Shown: in pieces, positions 3,407-41,050 of the stretch | Layout: every line of letters begins with the position of its first letter | How positions within the stretch are numbered: the stretch's first letter is position 1 | Origin: a virus | Lineage: Duplodnaviria; Heunggongvirae; Uroviricota; Caudoviricetes | Virus record (IMG/VR): IMGVR_UViG_2548876945_000011 | Span: 1 to 41,326 of that record | Direction: 5' to 3' (one strand) | DNA length: 41,326 nt | Position numbers and translations under genes: made by a program | The notes under the pieces: generated by a model | Seen by the model: only the letters and a program-made list of their open reading frames with translations | What the model was told of the DNA's origin: nothing | The model's database searches: none

Positions 3407-6050
3407 TTGCATACTCCTTAGCCCAGCGGGGCAGTGATAACGTTTTAATAGCTGGCCATTCATCGGTATTCAGGCAGTCAGCCAGGGTCCTCAGATTGCG
3501 GTGATATTCCTGCTGGCCTGCCAGTTTTGCTTCTTCGCCCATCATGAAAATCTCAACCGGGTAACGTCCGCATTCAACAGTTGTGCTGGCAACCAGAAAA
3601 ACGAAAGTTGGCAGCACGCCAAACTGTGCTTCATAACCGTCACTGTAGAATGCATCCTGAACGTGATAGCGGTAGTCGTAATAAGCCGTTTTGAATCGTT
3701 GAATATCCGCTGTGGTTTTCACGTCCATGATCCAGTGAAATTCAGGAATAATTTTGTCCGGACGGCACCGACACAAAATTCCTGTTTCCGGATCTTCCCA
3801 GTAAATTGATGATTCAGCGTGTCCGGCGCTTTCAACAAGCCATTGCCCCAGCGGCAAAGCCATAACGCTTTGATACATGAGTTCAATTTTCCGGCCTTCT
3901 TCCGCAGTGATAACCGTTTTTCCTGTGCTTGCGCATTCCATCAGAAACGCTTTCTCTTCTTCTTTTCCGGCGTTTGTACGGCGGTTAAATTCAGGTGCTA
4001 CGATAAAGCGGTTACTGAATTCTTCCGGTTCAAGTACCCGGCAGTGGAAAGCGGTTCCTAAATCGAGCGTTTTTGTCTTTGTAGTGTCCACGGGGGCATT
4101 TTTACGCCACAAATACAGTGCCGGAGTATCAGCAATGTCATCGAGCTGAGACTTACTGACACCGGGACCCGCGTGGTAATTCTCATTCGAAATTCCGTAA
4201 TAAATACCTGGCTCTATGTCTTCTACGATTACGGGATCTGCGACTTCGCCAGTTTCATCACTGCAATCGCGATGCGGATCGCTGCCAGCATTCTCATTGT
4301 GCGGATGTTCAGCGCCTTCCATTTCCTCCGGATCTTTTTCCTTAGCTTCAACCTGATTCTCTTCACCGAATGTTTCCTGGTATGTTGCGTCGCCCATCAC
4401 CGCACCACAGTCAGGGCAGTTATCCCCGCCAGTCTGACCGCAGGCATTGCAGACTATTTCCGGTTCCTGTTGCACTACTGGCTCAGGTTGTTTCGCATCC
4501 GGGCTGATTTTTTCCGTTTCTGGCTGGTTCTGGTACACAGAATCGCGAGTCTGGATCCCCTTAACCCATTTCGGATCGTTCGGGTCGCTAATCCCTTCAA
4601 CAAATTCTCCGCGAGAGGCAGCCAGTAATTTGTCTGCATCGACAGGATTTTTGGGCGGAATGTTTTTCCGGGCTTCATGGAGTTCTGCCCGCAGTTTCTG
4701 ATATTTCGCATCAACAGAATTTACCTGTGACTGAGCATCCAGCGACTGCGTGTCCTGATGATGTTCAGTTGCATCCGGTTCCACTGTTTCAGCCGTTGCC
4801 TGTTCATCTGCCATTGCGCAAGATGGTTGCAGTTTTTCTTCATCATCCTGTTTTTCTTCTTCTGTTACACGCTGCGGCATCGGGGCAGAGGAACGACCGC
4901 AGGCAATATCCACGATTTCTGGATCAGGGTTGGCATGATCAGTTTCAGTCAGTACTTTGTTCAGATATTCAGTGACGTGTGCGGGGATAACCTCGATCCC
5001 AATTGGTGCTTCTTTTACGGACGCAACCACGATGGCGCGGGAATAATCCAGCCCACCAGGCATGGTGATGAATTTGTCGCGGAAAACAGAAAAGGGTGGT
5101 TTATTTTCAGCGATAATTTCCTCGACACGTTTAGCGTGTGCCGGATGAAGGTTATAAATGTCCACGTCCATTGAACGAGCCAGTACGCCAGTGGCTACGT
5201 CGCGCGCCAGTGACGTCAGATCGTGAACGAAACCTTCGCCGCGATCGGTGAGGTTCCCGCCGCCAGCATTAGCGCCGGAAGCCGTGCGCGTGATGCGTGA
5301 AACACGATTTCCTTTTCGCCATTCTTTTGTCAGAAGACCGCGATCAATGTGTTCGGTATCCAGCCAGGCTGAAATGAAATTCTTAAATTCATAGGGCTGA
5401 TGTTTTTTCGTGATAGAGAACACTGCCTTAATTGCATCAGTCAGGCGGAGCAGGGCGGCATTATCCAGAGTTGTCGGTTCTGCCATGCTGCGTATGGCCA
5501 ACAGCAGATTCTGGACATAGCTGTTTTCCTGATCCATCTCAAGAGCAGTAATGTGTTTGCGTTGTTCACGGGTGGCATGATGCAGGTATTTCCGATCCCC
5601 GGCAGCATACGTAAAAATGTGCAGAAGACGCTGTGTGAACCGCAAAGTGGCTACAGAGACTTCGCAATCCTGGCAATCCTCGTGGGCGTCTGCCTGCGCG
5701 TTTTCTTCCTGGCCTCCCGCCAGTTCTTTGGTTTCTTGAGCATTATCCTGGTGGTGAACGTCGTCTGGCGCTGCTCCCGGTTTTAGTTCCCAGGTCATGG
5801 AGTCTTTGCTGAGTTGATAGCGTTCACTCCAGGTAAAATCGATCTCACCTTCAGGGGGCAGGTCATTAACGACAGGAAAATTCGTGGCAACAGCTTTAAA
5901 ATAGCTGCTCAGTTTTTTACCTGACTTAACGATCAGGTAGTCCAGAGTGGCACAGGTCGATTCAAAATCGTCGCTTGCCCACAGGACGACGTCAGGTTCA
6001 CCGGATGATTTTTTCGCTTTCCGTAACAGGAAGAGTGGTTTTGTGCTCAT
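3399..6050 (-). CDS. recE: RecE exonuclease VIII
   Basis: 883-aa ORF immediately upstream of and overlapping recT; N-terminus [14 protein letters not shown]... and length agree with Rac RecE. Confidence 0.9.
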
Positions 6051-8249: not shown

Positions 8250-8528
8250 TTAGGGAAACTGGCGTCTTGCGTGGATCACGTTTACTACTTCAACGCTTGA
8301 TGTTGTTACGCGGTATAGAATTATATAGTTAGGGTGGGCTACAATCTCACGCAAGCCAGGTACTCTGTCGCTTGGTGGGTATAAATACGGATGTTCGGAT
8401 AACGGCAGCACACAACCCCTTAATCGCTGCCATAAGCGTTCAGCCGCATCTATGTCGAAACGAGCAATATAGCTAGTTATATCATCTAGGTCGGTATCTG
8501 CGCTTTCAAGCCATAACACGGGTAACAT
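8250..8528 (-). CDS. parE: ParE/RelE-superfamily toxin
   Basis: 92-aa product from MLPVLWLESADTDLDDITSYIA... with the ParE-like C-terminal pattern; starts 1 nt after the antitoxin stop. Confidence 0.75.
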   Translation of the reverse strand: MLPVLWLESADTDLDDITSYIARFDIDAAERLWQRLRGCVLPLSEHPYLYPPSDRVPGLREIVAHPNYIILYRVTTSSVEVVNVIHARRQFP

Positions 8529-8529
8529 T

Positions 8530-8721
8530 TTACTGCTTGCTCCGTTCCTTGCGCATTTTAGCAAAGCGTTCTGCCATTCTGCGCTCAACTTCGTCATGGG
8601 GAATTGCTGGGCGCGGATCTGCAAGGCTCGTTGCTACTTTCGCACGCAGCCATTCGTTGTAACTGTTTTCTTGTTCAATGGTTTCAAATTCAGAAACCAT
8701 TGGTGAAAGGGCTCTATTCAT
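8530..8721 (-). CDS. paaA: Antitoxin of the ParE module (PaaA-like)
   Basis: 63-aa product MNRALSPMVSEFETIEQENSYNEWLRAK... with GGAGG RBS, immediately upstream of the toxin; resembles PaaA2 as I remember it. Confidence 0.6.
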   Translation of the reverse strand: MNRALSPMVSEFETIEQENSYNEWLRAKVATSLADPRPAIPHDEVERRMAERFAKMRKERSKQ

Positions 8722-9513: not shown

Positions 9514-9935
9514 AAATCAAGCATGAACACATCCGCATGGCGATGAATGCCTGGGCGCATCCGGACGGTGAAAAAGTTCCGGCAGCTGAAATAACCAGGG
9601 CTTATTTTGAACTGGGTATGACGTTCCCAGAACTGTATGACGACAGCCATCCGGAAGCCCTGGCTCGTAATACCCAGAAAATTTTCCGCTGGGTGGAGAA
9701 AGACACCCCTGATGCGGTTAAAAAAATTCAGGCGCTGTTACCGGCGATCGAAAAGGCAATGCCACCTCTGCTGGTGGCCCGAATGCGCAGCCACAGTTCA
9801 GCCTATTTTCGGGAGCTGGTGGAGACGCGGGAACGACTGGTGAGAGACGCTGATGATTTTGTCGCAGTGGCGATCGCTGGTTTCAATCAGATGAATCGTG
9901 GTGGCCCGGCGGGAAATGCCGTGGTCGTTCATTAA
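9510..9935 (+). CDS. ydaT: YdaT-like protein (CII-like regulator/toxin family)
   Basis: 141-aa ORF overlapping the ydaS stop by 4 nt (MKIKHEHIRMAMNAWAHPDGEK...). Confidence 0.75.
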   Translation: MKIKHEHIRMAMNAWAHPDGEKVPAAEITRAYFELGMTFPELYDDSHPEALARNTQKIFRWVEKDTPDAVKKIQALLPAIEKAMPPLLVARMRSHSSAYFRELVETRERLVRDADDFVAVAIAGFNQMNRGGPAGNAVVVH

Positions 9936-9956
9936 GAATGGTATAGGAGAAAATCG

Positions 9957-10250
9957 ATGACATTTACAAATGAAGGTCGAATTGTTTTTGATTTTGAGTA
10001 CGAAACTCCATTGCAGAGATTGATTATGTTAAGAATTTTCTGCTCCGGGAGTGGCGATGGTGGGCGTGAAAAGCGTTTTGAAGATCAGGAATTCCGACGT
10101 TTTTGTTGTTGTACGTTTGATGAGTTTGAGCAGGCTATCGCCAAACTTATCGAGATGGGGGTGATTCATAAAATAAGTTATGGATATCAATACGGAAAGC
10201 CATCAAGTGGTTACATCATCAAAGATCCAGATGAAATTATTCAGTTATGA
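9957..10250 (+). CDS. Hypothetical protein
   Basis: 97-aa ORF with GGAGA RBS, overlapping the start of the replication initiator gene. Confidence 0.5.
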   Translation: MTFTNEGRIVFDFEYETPLQRLIMLRIFCSGSGDGGREKRFEDQEFRRFCCCTFDEFEQAIAKLIEMGVIHKISYGYQYGKPSSGYIIKDPDEIIQL

Positions 10251-11212
10251 GTCTTCTTTTTGCTGAACGCCCGCTGGTTATTAACACGCAGCTGGCGATG
10301 AAAATTGGTCTGAACGAAGCCATCGTGTTGCAGCAGCTGCATTACTGGTTGAGAGATACCGGTTCCGGCATGGAATGTGATGGTGTTCGCTGGATTTATA
10401 ACACAACAGAACAATGGCTGGAACAGTTCCCGTTCTGGTCAGAGTCAACGTTAAAACGCGCATTTGCAAGTCTGAAAGCGCTGGGGCTTTTGCGTTGTGA
10501 AAAGCTCAACAAATCAAAGCGTGACATGACTAATTTTTACACGATTAATTACGAGAGCGAGCTTTTAGATGGTGGCAAAGTGAGCGAATCCATCAGGTCA
10601 AAATGCGCCGCTCCATCAGGTCAAAATGACACGATGGAAGAGGCCAAAATGGCACGCTCCATTGGCTCAAAACGACCCAATGTCATCGGGTCAAAATGGC
10701 CTGATGATCTTACAGAGAATACAACAGAGATTACTACAGAGAATAAAAACACTTCTCGTCCGGAAGCTTTGCAACCGGACATGCAGACGGCTGAACAGGA
10801 TTTTTTAACCCGACACCCTGACGCGGTTGTGTTCAGTGCGAAAAAACGCCAGTGGGGCAACCAGGAGGATTTAGCGTGTGCGCAGTGGATCTGGGGACGA
10901 ATCGTGAGTCTTTACGAGCAGGCTGCCAGCGATGATGGCGAAATCATGCGACCGAAAGAACCCAACTGGACTGCATGGGCCAATGATGTGCGCACAATGC
11001 GGATGCTGGATGGCAGAACTCACAGACAAATTTGCGAAATGTTTGGTCGGGTACAGCGGGATCCATTCTGGGTAAAAAACGTCATGAGCCCGTCAAAGCT
11101 TCGCGAAAAATGGGATGAGCTGGTTATTCGTCTGGGGCGTTCACCTGTACAGCGTTGCGTGAATCACATTTCTGAACCGGACACCGAAATTCCGCCGGGC
11201 TTCAGGGGGTAA
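10247..11212 (+). CDS. Replication initiator / replisome organiser (lambda O-like)
   Basis: 321-aa ORF immediately upstream of the DnaC-like gene; contains iterons inside its coding sequence, as lambda O contains ori. Confidence 0.65.
   Translation: MSLLFAERPLVINTQLAMKIGLNEAIVLQQLHYWLRDTGSGMECDGVRWIYNTTEQWLEQFPFWSESTLKRAFASLKALGLLRCEKLNKSKRDMTNFYTINYESELLDGGKVSESIRSKCAAPSGQNDTMEEAKMARSIGSKRPNVIGSKWPDDLTENTTEITTENKNTSRPEALQPDMQTAEQDFLTRHPDAVVFSAKKRQWGNQEDLACAQWIWGRIVSLYEQAASDDGEIMRPKEPNWTAWANDVRTMRMLDGRTHRQICEMFGRVQRDPFWVKNVMSPSKLREKWDELVIRLGRSPVQRCVNHISEPDTEIPPGFRG
10592..10698. repeat. Candidate replication origin: five iterons (consensus ATCrGGTCAAAATG)
   Basis: Direct repeats starting near 10592, 10615, 10638, 10661 and 10685 at about 23-bp spacing, followed by three ACAGAGAwT repeats at 10711-10745. 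Confidence 0.6.
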
Positions 11213-11218
11213 CGAAGC

Positions 11219-11719
11219 ATGAAAAATATTGCGACAGGCGGTGTTCTTGAACGCATCCGTAAGCTGGCTCCGCAGCATGTAACCGCGCCATACCGAACAG
11301 TGGACGAGTGGCGCGAGTGGCAACTTGCTGAAGGCCAGAAACGTAGCGAGGAGATCAACCGCCTGAATCGCCAGTTGCGGGTGGAAAAAATTCTGAATCG
11401 CTCAGGCATCCAGCCGTTGCACCGCAAGTGCTCGTTTGCGAATTACCAGGTGCAGAACGAAGGGCAGCGATACGCGTTAAGCCAGGCGAAATCCATCGCC
11501 GATGAACTGATGACCGGGTGTACAAATTTTGCGTTCAGCGGAAAACCTGGTACCGGGAAAAATCACTTAGCGGCAGCTATCGGGAATCGCCTGCTGAAAG
11601 ACGGTCAGACAGTGATTGTGGTTACCGTGGCTGATGTTATGAGCGCCCTGCACGCCAGCTATGACGACGGGCAGTCAGGCACGCAAAAGTTGCAGGACTG
11701 GATGATGCCGATACCGTAA
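11219..11719 (+). CDS. DnaC-like helicase loader, apparently C-terminally truncated
   Basis: Walker A GKPGTGKNHLAAAIG present, but the ORF stops at 166 aa, before the expected Walker B region, against about 245 aa for DnaC-family proteins. Confidence 0.6.
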   Translation: MKNIATGGVLERIRKLAPQHVTAPYRTVDEWREWQLAEGQKRSEEINRLNRQLRVEKILNRSGIQPLHRKCSFANYQVQNEGQRYALSQAKSIADELMTGCTNFAFSGKPGTGKNHLAAAIGNRLLKDGQTVIVVTVADVMSALHASYDDGQSGTQKLQDWMMPIP

Positions 11720-11876
11720 CGCTTAAGGAAGTGACAGAAGCATTGTTGCATTGTGCGGAACAGATTCGCGCGCCTGAATAATTAAATTTAGTGTTGTAAA
11801 TAAAATTTAATCCTTAACCGGAGGGATTTCTGCACCCTCAGAACATCAGGAGGCCGCCCGAAAGGGCGGTAATGAA

Positions 11877-12059
11877 ATGCGAAAGTTCAGAATAATTATT
11901 GAAACGGGAATAGCTGGTGGAGATTTTGAGGATGTATTCGAAGTGGATGATGGTGCGACACCAGATGAAATACAGGACGAAGCAAAAGAAATTTTCTTTA
12001 ACTACTGCAATTACTCATATCACGAAATAAAAGATGAGGAGGAAGAACAAAATGGCTGA
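11877..12059 (+). CDS. Small highly acidic protein
   Basis: 60 aa with 18 D/E against 5 K/R; AGGAGG lies 23 nt upstream, separated from the ATG by a CCGCCC-GAAA-GGGCGG hairpin. Confidence 0.45.
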   Translation: MRKFRIIIETGIAGGDFEDVFEVDDGATPDEIQDEAKEIFFNYCNYSYHEIKDEEEEQNG

Positions 12060-12228
12060 TTTTGGTTCAACTAAATACAACGTCAGTTTTGAAGAATGGC
12101 ATGAACTGTTAATGGACTATGCAGAGTTACGCGGTGGAAGTGCCGCTGATGCTGAAGCATGGCGTGATGACTACGAAGCAGGAAAAACTCCGGTCGAAGC
12201 ATATTGTGATGAGTGGGGCGATGAATGA
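12052..12228 (+). CDS. Small acidic protein
   Basis: 58 aa from MADFGSTKYNV... with 16 D/E against 4 K/R; GGAGGAAG RBS; start overlaps the previous gene's end. Confidence 0.45.
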   Translation: MADFGSTKYNVSFEEWHELLMDYAELRGGSAADAEAWRDDYEAGKTPVEAYCDEWGDE

Positions 12229-12439
12229 GCGAGATTAATTATCAGGAAGGACATGATTTCGTTATGCTTGATGGAGGGCGCTATATATTTTCCTCGCACC
12301 TGTGATAAAAATGATGAGCCGAGACTGTATTTACGGGACGCTGAGAGAATACCATAGAAAAGCTTATCTAACTTAAGTAGAATTGCTGCGGGTGCTTGAG
12401 GCTATCTGCCTCAGGCATGAACACCAAAGGCAGATAGAG

Positions 12440-12510
12440 AAAAGCCCCAGTTAACATTACGCGTCCTGCAAGACGCTTAACATTAATCTGAGGCTCAATC
12501 TATGAACGGC
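12440..12510 (-). ncRNA. sok: Sok-like antisense RNA (antitoxin of the hok locus)
   Basis: Minus-strand promoter TTGCCT (12545-12540), 17-bp spacer, TAACCT (12522-12517); the transcript would be complementary to the mok start region. Ends are approximate. Confidence 0.4.
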
Positions 12511-12558
12511 AAATCTAGGTTAGCCTCTTACGTGCCGAAAGGCAAGGAGAAGCAGGCT

Positions 12559-12714
12559 ATGAAGCAGCAAAAGGCGATGTTAATCGCCCTGATCGTCATC
12601 TGTTTAACCGTCATAGTGACGGCACTGGTAACGAGGAAAGACCTCTGCGAGGTACGAATCCGAACCGGCCAGACGGAGGTCGCTGTTTTCGTAGACTACG
12701 AATCTGAGAAGTAA
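12559..12714 (+). CDS. hok: Hok/Gef-family type I membrane toxin
   Basis: 51-aa MKQQKAMLIALIVICLTVIVTALVTRKDLCEVRIRTGQTEVAVF...; closely matches the HokD/RelF and HokC sequences I remember; in-frame mok-like leader from 12502. Confidence 0.8.
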   Translation: MKQQKAMLIALIVICLTVIVTALVTRKDLCEVRIRTGQTEVAVFVDYESEK

Positions 12715-12784
12715 GAGTGACCAGGCGGGAGAGTAATCTCCCGCCACCTCTGATGTGTCGGCATCCTCAACGCACCCGCGCTTA

Positions 12785-12806
12785 ACCCGCTTCGGCGGGT
12801 TTTTTG
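12785..12806 (+). terminator. Intrinsic terminator of the hok transcript
   Basis: ACCCGC-TTCG-GCGGGT hairpin followed by TTTTTTGTTTT; preceded by a 9-bp perfect hairpin at 12724-12745 (fbi-like 3' element). Confidence 0.6.
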
Positions 12807-14347: not shown

Positions 14348-14407
14348 TCCGAAGCGCCAGCAAAATCTGGCGTCGGGATTGGAACCCCGGATATCGAAAC
14401 GGTGCAT

Positions 14408-14427
14408 ACCGCGCTGGCGGTTTTTTT
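14408..14427 (+). terminator. Candidate tR'-like terminator
   Basis: ACCGC-GCTG-GCGGT hairpin followed by T7, about 60 nt downstream of the candidate late promoter. Confidence 0.4.
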
Positions 14428-14590
14428 ATGCGCTAAGCACAGTCACATTCGCGATTTATGGCGGGCTGTGTGGGGGCACCGAAAGGTGCACCGGATGTTT
14501 CGACCGGTAGTTCCAACCCTGCACAGTTCGCCACCCGATGATTGGAACCTGAAGGTGGTGAGGTAAAAATTATCGAAACGCGAGGTCGTT

Positions 14591-15154
14591 ATGACTGTTC
14601 AAGTTGCTGTCAAAAACCTTTCCCCTGTCACTTATAACCAGATTCCTGTAATCACAACTGAGTTACTCGCCCGCCTTTACGGAACAGAAGCAATCCGTAT
14701 ACAGCAGAATCACCATAAAAATAAATCTCGATTTATTGAGGGAAAACACTTCTTTAAAGCTGTTGGTGATGAGCTCAAAAATTTGCGACTAGTTTTAAAC
14801 GAGTCGCAAAATGAGGTGAAAATTTCTCCAAAAACCCGCTCCCTCATCCTCTGGACAGAACGCGGCGCAGCCCGCCACGCAAAAATGCTCGAAACCGATC
14901 AGGCGTGGGATGTGTTCGAAAGACTGGAAGACTGCTATTTCAGACAAAAGGATCCGTCAGCGCCAGTTTCATGCCAGAAAAGTTACGACACGCGAGTTCT
15001 CTGTTATCAGCGAGGCGGTGTCACTGTTTCCACAATTCAGTTGCGGGATGATGATATTGTTATTTCCCTTGAGTCATGGCTGGAACTGGCGAGAGCCAAT
15101 GGTTGGTTTGTTGTTCGCAGAGATAAACTGGTGGAAAGGCTGATGCAGCTTTAA
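14591..15154 (+). CDS. ORF6N-domain protein (antirepressor-like N-terminal domain)
   Basis: 187 aa; motifs NKSRFIEGKHFF and LILWTERGAARHAKMLETDQAWDVFERLE match my memory of the ORF6N family. Confidence 0.65.
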   Translation: MTVQVAVKNLSPVTYNQIPVITTELLARLYGTEAIRIQQNHHKNKSRFIEGKHFFKAVGDELKNLRLVLNESQNEVKISPKTRSLILWTERGAARHAKMLETDQAWDVFERLEDCYFRQKDPSAPVSCQKSYDTRVLCYQRGGVTVSTIQLRDDDIVISLESWLELARANGWFVVRRDKLVERLMQL

Positions 15155-37025: not shown

Positions 37026-37834
37026 TGGCGAAAAATGACTTTAAAGCGTTTGCAACGGATCGAAATGCCAATGTTATATCGCAGGAGGAATGGGAAGCGT
37101 TGCCCGCGCTTTTATCTGGATTTACAGCAGGGAAAGCCTCCAGTGCGCAAGTCAATAAGGTTATTCGGCAGGCCAGCTTTATTGCTGCAGCTCTGGCCCA
37201 GTTTGTAAGTGATAAAACGCAACGGGATGTGCTTGATAATGGTGATCTGCCCGGTTTTGTTGAATTGCTGGGATCGGGGTTTGCTGTTGAATACCTGAGC
37301 CGCAAGAATCCGTTTGGTGATATCAAATCGGATGGCACGGTGAAAACGGCTCTCGAAAACCTTGGTTTGGGAGAAGGCTCTGCATTACCGGTTGGTGTGC
37401 CTGTTCCGTGGCCTTCAGCCACTCCGCCAACGGGGTGGCTAAAATGTAACGGAGCAGTATTTTCTTCTGAAAAGTACCCAAATCTGGCAAAGGCTTACCC
37501 AACATTAAAATTACCAGATTTACGCGGTGAATTTATTCGTGGCTGGGATGATGGGCGCGGGATTGACTCTGGTCGTAACTTATTATCTGCACAGAATGAT
37601 GCAATTCAGAATATTGTTGGTTCTTTTGGGCGTACCCAGCTTTTTAGAGACGTACTTAGTTCAGGGCCATTTAGTCAACATGGGCAAGTATTATCTACAG
37701 GTCTAAAGGAAGCCGAAATTATTGATGGTTATGGCGCTTATAACTGGACATTCGACGCATCTCGCTCAGTTCGCACAGCATCTGAAACCCGCTCCCGTAA
37801 CATCGCCTTTAATTATATTGTGAGGGCTGCATGA
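37025..37834 (+). CDS. Tail fiber protein (constant N-terminus plus invertible C-terminal collar domain)
   Basis: Tail-collar-like motif PVGVPVPWP...LPDLRGEFIRGWDDGRGIDSGR; the crossover site at 37350-37375 lies inside the ORF. Confidence 0.7.
   Translation: MAKNDFKAFATDRNANVISQEEWEALPALLSGFTAGKASSAQVNKVIRQASFIAAALAQFVSDKTQRDVLDNGDLPGFVELLGSGFAVEYLSRKNPFGDIKSDGTVKTALENLGLGEGSALPVGVPVPWPSATPPTGWLKCNGAVFSSEKYPNLAKAYPTLKLPDLRGEFIRGWDDGRGIDSGRNLLSAQNDAIQNIVGSFGRTQLFRDVLSSGPFSQHGQVLSTGLKEAEIIDGYGAYNWTFDASRSVRTASETRSRNIAFNYIVRAA
37350..37375. repeat. Left crossover site of the invertible segment (hix/gix-like)
   Basis: CTCTCGAAAACCTTGGTTTGGGAGAA fits the Hin/Gin-family consensus TTnTnnnAAACCnnGGTTTnnnAnAA; its right 14 bp are a perfect inverted copy of 39295-39308. 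Confidence 0.65.
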
Positions 37835-38436
37835 TAAGTAAAGCTGTATTAAATAATGAACTCATCGCCACAAAGGCCGGAGACATTACCGTTTATAATT
37901 ATGATGGTGAAACACGGGAATATATTTCCACATCAACTGAATATCTTGCTGTGGGTGTCGGTATCCCGGCATGTTCCTGTTTAGATGCTCCTGGCTCATA
38001 TAAAGCTGGTTATGCAATTTGCCGTTCTGCAGATTTTAACTCATGGGAATATGTGCCAGACCATCGCGGTGAAGTTGTCTATAGTACCGAAACGGGAGAT
38101 ACCAAAGAAATCGCAGTTCCGGGTGATTATCCTGAAAATACAACCACTATCGCCCCGTTAACGCCATACGATGAATGGGATGGTGAGAAATGGGTGACCG
38201 ATACTGAAGCACAGCATAGCGCCGCAGTAGGCGCGGCAGAAGCACAGCGTCAGTCACTGATTGATACTGCAATGGCTTCCATTAGTCTGATTCAACTGAA
38301 ATTGCAGGCCGGGCGGAAGCTGACGCAGACAGAAAACACCCGACTTAACGCTGTGCTGGATTACATTGACGCGGTGACTGCAACAGATACCAGCACCGCG
38401 CCGGATGTCATCTGGCCTGAACTACCGGAGGCGTAG
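37831..38436 (+). CDS. Tail fiber assembly protein
   Basis: 201 aa with C-terminal ...APDVIWPELP motif typical of Tfa proteins; follows the fiber gene. Confidence 0.7.
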   Translation: MISKAVLNNELIATKAGDITVYNYDGETREYISTSTEYLAVGVGIPACSCLDAPGSYKAGYAICRSADFNSWEYVPDHRGEVVYSTETGDTKEIAVPGDYPENTTTIAPLTPYDEWDGEKWVTDTEAQHSAAVGAAEAQRQSLIDTAMASISLIQLKLQAGRKLTQTENTRLNAVLDYIDAVTATDTSTAPDVIWPELPEA

Positions 38437-38851
38437 GCCATTCAATATCTGGAGCACTGGAGGTATCAACCAGTTCCAGTGCGTCCAGATAATCCAGCCA
38501 TAAATTATATTGTTCCAGCTCGTAACCTTTCAGACGACCAATAGCAGCTTTGCCAGGCCACTGATGGGTATTGATGTAGTTATTGACTTCTGAAACCAAA
38601 GATATCTTTTTCATTTCAGCCGCCAGCATCTCATCCTCTTTTGAAGGCGGCGGGGAATTAATCCATATTGGCCGTCCTGAACTGTCAGCGCCAATTTCTT
38701 TCCCTTCTGGATGCAGCCCAAGAAATTGCTCATATGTTTCTCTGGTAATTTCAATAACATCATCAGGAAGCGTTCCCGCATCCTCATATTCTGGAAACAA
38801 TTCTTGCAGATAAAAACTTTTACTTGCGGGTGAAAAGAATACTGAGTTCAT
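38408..38851 (-). CDS. Alternative tail fiber assembly protein (inverted orientation)
   Basis: 147 aa on the opposite strand with C-terminal ...APDIEWPTPP motif; convergent with the first tfa. Confidence 0.7.
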   Translation of the reverse strand: MNSVFFSPASKSFYLQELFPEYEDAGTLPDDVIEITRETYEQFLGLHPEGKEIGADSSGRPIWINSPPPSKEDEMLAAEMKKISLVSEVNNYINTHQWPGKAAIGRLKGYELEQYNLWLDYLDALELVDTSSAPDIEWPTPPVVQAR

Positions 38852-38853
38852 TC

Positions 38854-39348
38854 TTACCGTCCAATGATTAACGCTGAGACGCTGGTATCTGAAGGAAAGG
38901 CTGCATTCAGTGGTTTGTCGACTTTGAACACAATCGTATTATTCCCCCTGACAGCGGCAAAAGAACAAACCGCCGTCGCGTATGAACCTGTAATATTACT
39001 GGATACACCACCATAAGCTGTTGTTGATACCAGAGGGATAACGCCCAGCACCTTATTAGGAAATACAAAGGGCAATGTGGCTGTGGCAATATAAGACTTA
39101 TTAGAACCTGTAATGGCATAAGCATTATCAGTCATTCCATTCATCGCCACTGGACCGCTTATACTTACAGTAACCATCTGAATGATTAGCCCGTCAGGTT
39201 GACGAATCACAAAATTTCCATTGCCACCAGTAACCGTCCAGAAAGACATATCAGGGATTTGGTTTTCCCCGTTGCCCACATTTCGTTTTGCCGCTTCTCC
39301 CAAACCAACGTTTATGAAAATGCAGAAATAACGAGCAAATGGCATCAT
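38854..39348 (-). CDS. Alternative tail fiber C-terminal segment (expressed only after inversion)
   Basis: Minus-strand ORF whose N-terminal region encodes GLGE across the right crossover site, matching ENLGLGEG at the left site; lacks its own plausible start. Confidence 0.55.
   Translation of the reverse strand: MMPFARYFCIFINVGLGEAAKRNVGNGENQIPDMSFWTVTGGNGNFVIRQPDGLIIQMVTVSISGPVAMNGMTDNAYAITGSNKSYIATATLPFVFPNKVLGVIPLVSTTAYGGVSSNITGSYATAVCSFAAVRGNNTIVFKVDKPLNAAFPSDTSVSALIIGR
39295..39320. repeat. Right crossover site of the invertible segment
   Basis: TTCTCCCAAACCAACGTTTATGAAAA; inverted match to the left site with identical central dinucleotide after inversion. Confidence 0.65.
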
Positions 39349-39374
39349 TCCTGCTTTTGTCAGGGGGATCTACC

Positions 39375-39929
39375 ATGCTTATTGGCTATGTACGCGTATC
39401 AACAAATGACCAGAACACAGATCTACAACGTAATGCGCTGAACTGTGCAGGATGCGAGCTGATTTTTGAAGACAAGATAAGCGGCACAAAGTCCGAAAGG
39501 CCGGGACTGAAAAAACTGCTCAGGACATTATCGGCAGGTGACACTCTGGTTGTCTGGAAGCTGGATCGGCTGGGGCGTAGTATGCGGCATCTTGTCGTGC
39601 TGGTGGAGGAGTTGCGCGAACGAGGCATCAACTTTCGTAGTCTGACGGATTCAATTGATACCAGCACACCAATGGGACGCTTTTTCTTTCATGTGATGGG
39701 TGCCCTGGCTGAAATGGAGCGTGAACTGATTGTTGAACGAACAAAAGCTGGACTGGAAGCTGCTCGCGCACAGGGACGAATTGGTGGACGTCGCCCCAAA
39801 CTTACACCAGAACAATGGGCGCAGGCCGGGCGACTAATTGCATCAGGAGTTCCTCGCCAGAAGGTGGCGATCATTTATGATGTTGGCGTATCGACTTTGT
39901 ATAAGAAGTTTCCGGTCGGAGATAAATGA
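39375..39929 (+). CDS. pin: Serine DNA invertase (Pin/Gin/Hin/Cin family)
   Basis: 184 aa from MLIGYVRVSTNDQNTDLQRNAL... with catalytic-Ser N-terminus and C-terminal HTH; adjacent to the invertible segment. Confidence 0.85.
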   Translation: MLIGYVRVSTNDQNTDLQRNALNCAGCELIFEDKISGTKSERPGLKKLLRTLSAGDTLVVWKLDRLGRSMRHLVVLVEELRERGINFRSLTDSIDTSTPMGRFFFHVMGALAEMERELIVERTKAGLEAARAQGRIGGRRPKLTPEQWAQAGRLIASGVPRQKVAIIYDVGVSTLYKKFPVGDK

Positions 39930-40233
39930 AACCGTAGCACGTCGTATGCAAGAACGTGCCACGGCTGGCTGATGGACGTTCGATAGCGCGAGTTTGAATG
40001 AAAATCAGCCGGAGGTGATTTTACATAATTGTTGCGGAATCATTCAATATAGGGATTGCTTATTTCTGCCTGGATTGGTCTGAAATAGTCCCGAAATTTT
40101 CTCTAAAAAACTCGAAAAAAATGGTAACTAATTGAATGCATTAATATGCAATGGTACGTGTTTGGGATTAAAAGATGAGCGTAATTTTGCTTAACAAATT
40201 AATTTAAAAAGGGTTTCTTGTTTGTTGACGAAA

Positions 40234-40253
40234 ACAGGAATCGTGTTCGGTCT
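40234..40253. repeat. attR core (ACAGGAATCGTGTTCGGTCT)
   Basis: 19/20 match to the attL core at 578-597, with weaker flanking similarity; 140 bp upstream of pphA. Confidence 0.6.
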
Positions 40254-40393
40254 CTTTTTATCTGTTAAAAGCCAGAAGCATTTCCTTCGCTGACTTTATA
40301 GTCAACCATAACACACACTCTACTGTCTGAGTCCAGCGTTTTTTAACATTCTTGTTAAGATTATGTGATCTTTAGCGCGGGAGGAAAATATTG

Positions 40394-41050
40394 ATGAAAC
40401 AGCCTGCGCCCGTTTATCAGAGAATTGCGGGTCATCAATGGCGACATATCTGGCTTTCTGGCGATATACACGGTTGTCTTGAGCAGTTGCGCCGCAAATT
40501 ATGGCATTGTCGTTTTGATCCGTGGCGAGATTTACTTATCTCAGTGGGAGACGTTATCGATCGTGGGCCGCAAAGTTTACGTTGTCTGCAGTTACTGGAA
40601 CAACATTGGGTTTGTGCGGTAAGAGGCAATCATGAACAGATGGCGATGGATGCGCTGGCATCCCAGCAGATGTCTTTGTGGTTGATGAATGGCGGCGACT
40701 GGTTTATTGCGCTGGCAGATAATCAACAGAAACAAGCGAAAACGGCGCTGGAAAAATGTCAGCATTTGCCCTTTATTCTTGAAGTACACAGTCGCACCGG
40801 CAAGCATGTTATTGCTCATGCCGATTATCCAGATGATGTTTATGAATGGCAAAAGGACGTTGATTTGCATCAGGTCTTGTGGAGCCGCTCGCGATTAGGT
40901 GAACGCCAAAAAGGGCAGGGAATTACAGGTGCTGATCATTTCTGGTTTGGTCATACACCGTTGCGACATCGCGTGGATATTGGCAACCTGCATTATATTG
41001 ATACCGGTGCTGTCTTTGGGGGCGAACTGACTCTTGTGCAATTGCAATAA
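40394..41050 (+). CDS. pphA: Serine/threonine protein phosphatase 1 (host gene)
   Basis: 218 aa with metallophosphatase motifs (GDIHGC, GDVIDRG, GNHE); matches my memory of E. coli PphA; GGGAGGAAAAT RBS. Confidence 0.85.
   Translation: MKQPAPVYQRIAGHQWRHIWLSGDIHGCLEQLRRKLWHCRFDPWRDLLISVGDVIDRGPQSLRCLQLLEQHWVCAVRGNHEQMAMDALASQQMSLWLMNGGDWFIALADNQQKQAKTALEKCQHLPFILEVHSRTGKHVIAHADYPDDVYEWQKDVDLHQVLWSRSRLGERQKGQGITGADHFWFGHTPLRHRVDIGNLHYIDTGAVFGGELTLVQLQ

Follow-up and report, generated by a model that had tools for sequence, protein, structure and literature searches.

Probable microhomology-mediated deletion of the 3′ part of a DnaC-type helicase-loader gene in a Rac-like lambdoid prophage

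The closest described relatives of the gene considered here are the YdaV/DnaC-type helicase loaders of prophages and phages, which belong to the same family (PRK12377) and include those of Escherichia phage vB_EcoS-673R7, Shigella phage 75/02 Stx and Gifsy-1/2. Rac YdaV and the loaders of lambdoid phages are encoded directly after an O-like initiator gene, as is the loader in the window (the whole 41,326-nt stretch that we analysed, IMG/VR record IMGVR_UViG_2548876945_000011); they differ in being 246–248 aa long with a full AAA+ module, whereas the loader sequence in the window ends at residue 154 and is followed by a 12-aa foreign tail. In E. coli DnaC, D169 and E170 belong to Walker B, N203 is sensor I, R220 is the arginine finger and R237 is sensor II. 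The window loader has the same fold family and domain order as DnaC (PDB 6QEL/6QEM; N-terminal domain 6KZA), but DnaC is a host gene and the window loader is a phage paralogue that lacks equivalents of D169/E170, N203, R220 and R237. The defective lambdoid prophages of O157 Sakai (Asadulghani et al. 2009, PMC2669165) resemble the window prophage in having small inactivating lesions in otherwise complete genomes. They use lambda-P-type, DnaC-type or DnaB-type loaders, and some of their defects were discussed or shown as being rescued by other resident prophages (PMC2669165). Their O and P functions, however, were judged apparently functional in all of the lambdoid prophages except Sp3 (PMC2669165), whereas in the window the lesion sits in the loader itself. 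The main text of a paper on the Stx-phage replication region (PMC8044961) makes no mention of DnaC, helicase loading or IstB.

The window extends from yebY (1–342) and the RyeA/SdsR small-RNA locus (463–607) to a gene for a NinI-like Ser/Thr phosphatase (40391–41050), which from its position is probably host pphA. An imperfect direct repeat of ~33 nt over the SdsR terminator, at 573–605 and 40229–40261, represents attL and attR and thus delimits an E. coli prophage of ~39.7 kb, inserted at the 3′ end of the bidirectional RyeA/SdsR locus between yebY and the phosphatase gene. Its early genes encode integrase, excisionase, RalR/RalA, RecT, RecE, KilR, a ParE/PaaA2 pair, a divergent repressor candidate, a YdaS/Cro-like protein and YdaT, and are followed by the replication module. 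The middle region carries DUF7167, hok/sok, DUF1367, YbcO and a DUF1133/Q-like antiterminator; lysis genes (holin, lysozyme, spanin) and a full myovirus-type set of virion genes are also present, the latter running from the small terminase to the tail fibres and including an invertible fibre segment with its invertase. The first-pass annotation had called the gene set otherwise complete, and the att sites, integrase, initiator, lysis and virion genes support that description, the exception being an 831-nt scar downstream of the loader gene.

That scar lies at ~12253–12256, 580 nt downstream of the lesion in the loader gene, and has ~1 nt of microhomology. Relative to E. coli 2009C-3133, 831 nt are missing (3702–4532 of that locus sequence), such that a 171-aa hypothetical gene (WP_001289996) runs to its codon 10 and continues in frame into the end of an 85-aa gene (WP_001176099); the product is a 26-aa ORF (12225–12305) that includes the last 15–16 codons of the 85-aa gene. 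Elsewhere in the prophage, three toxin-antitoxin modules (2169–2347, 8250–8720 and 12390–12714) correspond to RalR/RalA, a ParE-toxin/PaaA2-antitoxin pair adjoining the repressor, and hok/sok. The Q-like gene is followed by an isrK-like RNA (14354–14427), a C4 antisense RNA (14454–14538) and then an ORF6N-domain gene (14591–15154), and together this region (14354–15154) looks like an antirepressor control cassette of the P1/P7 immI or Gifsy-1 isrK style. The invertible tail-fibre segment (37357–39929) is bounded by 20-nt inverted repeats (37357–37376 and 39294–39313) that enclose, on the minus strand, an assembly gene and an alternative C-terminus for the fibre, with a Gin/Pin-type DNA invertase gene at 39339–39929.

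Upstream of the loader, the replication module comprises the following features:

9957–10250, plus strand: 97-aa ORF, a conserved member of the module, annotated in the intact E9 module and present in the source-contig gene calls
10247–11212, plus strand: O-like replication initiator, 321 aa, intact; its E9 counterpart, also of 321 aa, is annotated ‘phage replication protein O’
10591–10748, plus strand: origin-like array within the initiator gene, identified by a repeat search

The initiator gene is located upstream of the loader gene and translationally close to it. The array within it consists of five 23-nt iterons (10591–10706) at 23–24-nt spacing, followed by three A/T-rich 12-nt repeats (10711–10748); by analogy with the lambda ori, which lies inside gene O, it would represent a lambda-like origin, and it appears intact. 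The C-terminal 20 aa of the initiator weakly resemble the C-terminus of DnaT (E 0.004), and its last 63 nt (11150–11212) share 94% identity with the 3′-terminal part of a different gene, which encodes a 356-aa ‘phage replisome organizer’ in the prophages of LSN03-016011/A and 2009C-3133; this 20-aa tail may be a shared partner-binding tail. A promoter and terminator scan of 11000–12800 gave sites no more numerous than in shuffled sequence.

The loader gene and the sequence that interrupts it can be divided as follows:

11219–11719, plus strand: ORF for a YdaV/DnaC-type helicase loader, 166 aa, as present in the window
11219–11680, plus strand: retained 5′ part of the loader gene, codons 1–154, 98.5% identical in DNA to the intact E9 module
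11674–11680, plus strand: probable deletion junction with 5–7 nt of microhomology, (GT)CAGGC, located by base-by-base comparison
11676–11781, plus strand: 3′ remnant (last 34 codons and stop) of a 66-aa hypothetical gene of the WP_001546006 type, identified by tblastn and DNA identity
11681–11719, plus strand: 12-codon out-of-frame tail TQKLQDWMMPIP and stop codon that end the 166-aa ORF, where the protein alignment diverges after G154

Codons 1–154 encode the N-terminal DnaB-binding domain, Walker A and the first portion of the AAA+ core. Homology places the predicted DnaB-interacting domain at the N-terminus, where residues 2–57 align to 6KZA_C (E 1.6e-5) and the domain also aligns with residues 2–55 of DnaC in 6QEL. 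The Walker A sequence GKPGTGKN (residues 108–115) is present and aligns with DnaC G106–N113, including K112. Over its whole length, the truncated ORF aligns to residues 2–158 of the 245 of E. coli DnaC (6QEL; E 5e-42), and its best NCBIfam match is to the YdaV-type ‘ATP-binding protein’ subfamily PRK12377, of which it covers positions 1–160 of 248 with a score of 311.7 bits, under the curated cut-off of 389. For the DnaC equivalog PRK07952, the match spans positions 5–150 of 246 (score 168 against a cut-off of 357). The Pfam domain IstB_IS21 (PF01695) passes its cut-off (38.5 versus 24.1), with ORF residues 46–162 corresponding to profile positions 42–152 of 238. Family models are thus matched over their first 60–65% only, and this partial coverage, together with the score below the curated cut-off, indicates that the ORF is, as judged by these models, a fragment of a YdaV/DnaC-type family member and fails as an intact one.

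What is missing can be read from the intact relatives. Their Walker B, DLLVLDEIG, occupies approximately residues 164–172 (LLVLDE ~165–170, matching DnaC D169/E170), past the break at residue 154, and this Walker B (hhhhDE) is not encoded anywhere in the window. Sensor I, the box VII arginine finger and sensor II (equivalents of DnaC N203, R220 and R237) are likewise absent from the ORF; they are present in the intact E9 relative, which aligns with E. coli DnaC residues 2–240 (E 9e-74), and on that alignment the equivalents of D169/E170, N203, R220 and R237 all fall after residue 154. The original description of a DnaC-like ORF of 166 aa that contains Walker A and stops before Walker B is therefore borne out, both by the relatives and by the extent of PRK12377 coverage.

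In a tblastn search of deposited phage genomes, the close relatives all aligned to loader residues 1–160, with identities over that range of 91% for Rac YdaV, 90% for several vB_EcoS phages and 77% for Shigella phages 75/02 Stx and POCJ13. Their loader genes are 741–747 nt long (246–248 aa) and have a YdaW/DUF1627 gene directly downstream, an order kept in five intact comparators, and each close relative examined runs on for another 94 residues past the break. In an alignment with three intact copies from E. coli prophages (E9, ETEC6335 and CDE6306), identity held through G154, after which the intact copies read EKFLRELCEVDLLVLDEIG... to residue 248, whereas the window reads TQKLQDWMMPIP and then stops. 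Loader sequence proper thus accounts for 154 of the 166 residues, and the remaining 12 are an out-of-frame read of foreign DNA. No intact 166-aa homologue was found in phages, the loaders of complete deposited phage genomes being 246–248 aa. We also considered a naturally short loader family and rejected it, as the other members of 31–182 aa in the 90% cluster are ‘partial’ entries at contig ends, whose sequences proceed normally into Walker B. Many loader entries from draft genomes are such partial ones, cut by contig ends at residues 149–182, which suggests that contigs of draft assemblies frequently end partway through the loader gene, probably where co-resident prophage copies diverge.

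A second open frame at the end of the loader ORF had been noted in the first-pass annotation, which placed it just beyond the stop codon at 11665–11781 and took it for a possible frameshifted remnant of the loader, left by a frameshift or a deletion. The frame is indeed open and protein-like as quoted: it opens at 11665, after a TAA at 11662–11664, stops at 11779–11781 and reads RRAVRHAKVAGLDDADTVTLKEVTEALLHCAEQIRAPE*. It begins, however, 55 nt ahead of the loader stop codon, so that it overlaps the end of the ORF rather than following it; it has no start codon giving at least 25 aa and is absent from the ORF list. A deletion scar is what the comparison supports, but the second frame is no remnant of the loader. 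Residues 33–66 and the stop of the 66-aa protein of 2009C-3133 correspond by tblastn to window 11677–11781 with 100% identity, and window 11676–12256 is 99.8–100% identical to prophages of strains LSN03-016011/A and 2009C-3133, in which the counterpart of 11676–11781 is the 3′ half of the gene for WP_001546006.1, located after a DUF977 gene. ETEC6335 carries the loader, the DUF1627 gene and the 66-aa gene in that order, the last normally lying ~1 kb downstream of the loader, after the DUF1627/YdaW gene. The remnant is out of the loader frame (position modulo 3 is 1, versus 2 for the loader start at 11219), and the loader ORF therefore reads 12 nonsense codons and then stops.

A frameshift, whether programmed or mutational, can be rejected, as the second frame encodes part of an unrelated 66-aa protein and the loader C-terminus is absent from the window. 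With the full-length loader as a tblastn query against all six window frames, nothing was found for residues 161–248 (best chance match E 0.54), which means that the 3′ end is missing rather than shifted; since the window lacks the last 285 nt of dnaC, no simple indel could restore the gene. The DUF1627 protein likewise had no match in any of the six window frames (best E 1.3). These negative six-frame searches also led us to reject an inversion or rearrangement that moved the loader 3′ end within the window.

The junction was compared base by base with E9 and ETEC6335 on the dnaC side and with 2009C-3133 and ETEC6335 on the small-gene side. Homology to dnaC stops at 11680, and homology to the small gene starts at 11674 (ETEC6335) or 11676 (2009C-3133), so alignment to full-length homologues and related prophages, as had been proposed at the outset, places the lesion at 11674–11680. 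The sequence (GT)CAGGC is common to the loader gene and the downstream 66-aa gene, and a shared joint of 5–7 nt is, on this comparison, the apparent signature of an illegitimate microhomology-mediated deletion. To the left, window 9901–11680 is 98.5% identical to the intact replication module of E9, and 10746–11680 is 96.5% identical to ETEC6335. Relative to ETEC6335, the nearest intact arrangement, 1,137 nt are missing: 285 nt of dnaC (94 codons and the stop), a 22-nt spacer, the 744-nt DUF1627 gene and the start of the small gene, which overlaps the end of the DUF1627 gene and has lost its first 32–33 codons.

We consider it very probable that the truncated loader arose by deletion. A single illegitimate, microhomology-mediated event of at least ~1.1 kb in a Rac-like lambdoid prophage would have fused loader codon 154 to codon 32/33 of the downstream 66-aa gene, out of frame. 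It would have removed the last 94 codons of the loader (Walker B, sensor I, arginine finger and sensor II), the DUF1627/YdaW gene and the 5′ half of the 66-aa gene. Among the E. coli genomes searched, no exact parent with more than 99% identity on both flanks was found, and the right flank is nearest to a different prophage type; the deleted length is therefore uncertain, at roughly 1.1–1.6 kb.

The exact 166-aa sequence is recorded in two contigs only: the source of the window (GCA_000446585.2, contig AIBB01000037.1, 258 kb) and a Logan assembly of run SRR21142961, which agrees with the window at 100% identity along a 7,549-nt stretch that takes in the junction and 175 nt past it. None of 5,426 complete E. 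coli genomes spans the junction, either with a 1.3-kb query or with a 141-nt query centred on it, and searches of GTDB species representatives, JGI metagenomes and IMG/VR with a degenerate 30-mer over the junction found no copy. A literature search for the source assembly and run accessions gave no match. The truncated allele is private and presumably recent, and the event that produced it would be limited to the strain lineage of the window.

The flanks themselves raise the question of whether the joint was made within one prophage. Illegitimate recombination between two co-resident or infecting lambdoid prophages, one of the E9/ETEC6335 type with dnaC and the other of the 2009C-3133 type with DUF977 and the 66-aa gene, would produce a mosaic joint instead of an internal deletion, with the same outcome for the loader. 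Consistent with such an exchange, identity jumps at the junction, from 96.5–98.5% on the left to 99.8–100% on the right (LSN03-016011/A and 2009C-3133), the prophage type that matches the right flank at 100% has its 66-aa gene placed after DUF977, and strain E9 has both segment types at separate chromosomal places. Lambdoid prophages are mosaic anyway, however, and unequal identities need no two-parent event at the junction itself; moreover, the ETEC6335 prophage holds both segments in the right order, 1.1 kb apart. We therefore regard a joint between two prophages as a possible but rather unlikely origin, and internal deletion as the preferred one. That the joint is an artefact of sequencing or assembly, and the true loader gene intact, seems extremely unlikely. 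The source is a draft assembly (AIBB01000037.1), and the loader gene is a frequent break-point of contigs in E. coli drafts, with the ‘partial’ entries ending at 149–182; but here the junction is internal to a 258-kb contig, and the independent SRR21142961 assembly shows the identical junction with 175 nt beyond it. An overlap of 5–7 nt at the joint is also far under any assembler k-mer and could not mislead an assembler.

Whether the gene arose by deletion or by exchange, its product could in principle be a functional short form whose N-terminal part binds host DnaB and either sequesters it or alters its activity; it might, for instance, be toxic once the prophage is induced or exclude phages that depend on DnaB. 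Its N-terminal domain is intact and homologous to the crystallised DnaC fragment (6KZA; residues 2–57, E 1.6e-5), the start, upstream context and translational arrangement with the initiator gene are all unaltered, and DnaB sequestration by lambda P is a known toxic mechanism (PMC4926192). Against this, thousands of genomes and billions of proteins yield the allele in only one or two samples, which gives no hint of selection, the 12-aa tail is out-of-frame nonsense, and half of an AAA+ core is likely to be unstable; we consider a selected short form very unlikely. It is equally improbable that the truncated loader, rather than being inert, acts as a dominant-negative DnaB-sequestering protein on prophage induction, a reading that is without support from conservation. 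If true, such a protein could poison host replication along with co-resident or superinfecting phages, and would amount to an accidental abortive or exclusion factor.

On the preferred reading, a deletion pseudogene, the 166-aa product would keep the DnaB-binding N-terminal domain and the P-loop but would be without three of the five core β-strands. The lost strands would have carried Walker B and sensor I, and the lost arginine finger is the one predicted to build the loader spiral on DnaB. The product would thus have none of the residues for ATP hydrolysis or for oligomerising on DnaB; lacking these, it should not load helicase, and from its sequence it should be inactive as a loader. After induction, the intact initiator and origin could still fire, and the prophage would then either borrow a loader (host DnaC or the YdaV-type protein of another prophage) or fail to replicate. 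A replication defect of the prophage, as judged from the gene content, is plausible, and the host or another prophage could supply the loader in trans. Of the 5,426 complete E. coli genomes, 4,457 contain DNA matching the initiator and loader module, often at multiple loci, which makes a resident helper plausible. In the prophages of 2009C-3133 and LSN03-016011/A, the 3′ end of the initiator gene (63 nt) is 94% identical to the one in the window, yet a loader gene is missing; a phage-encoded loader may therefore not be strictly required.

In conclusion, the loader ORF at 11219–11719 is best labelled a loader pseudogene made by a deletion of ~1.1 kb, and 11676–11781 the remnant of a second gene. 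A lesion of this kind, a deletion pseudogene in a prophage, is ordinary prophage decay, and no new biological question arises from the loss of the loader. Despite its complete structural, lysis and integration modules, the prophage is not to be presumed capable of autonomous replication. With two deletion scars within 600 bp, it provides a clean, well-delimited case of microhomology-mediated decay in a young prophage.
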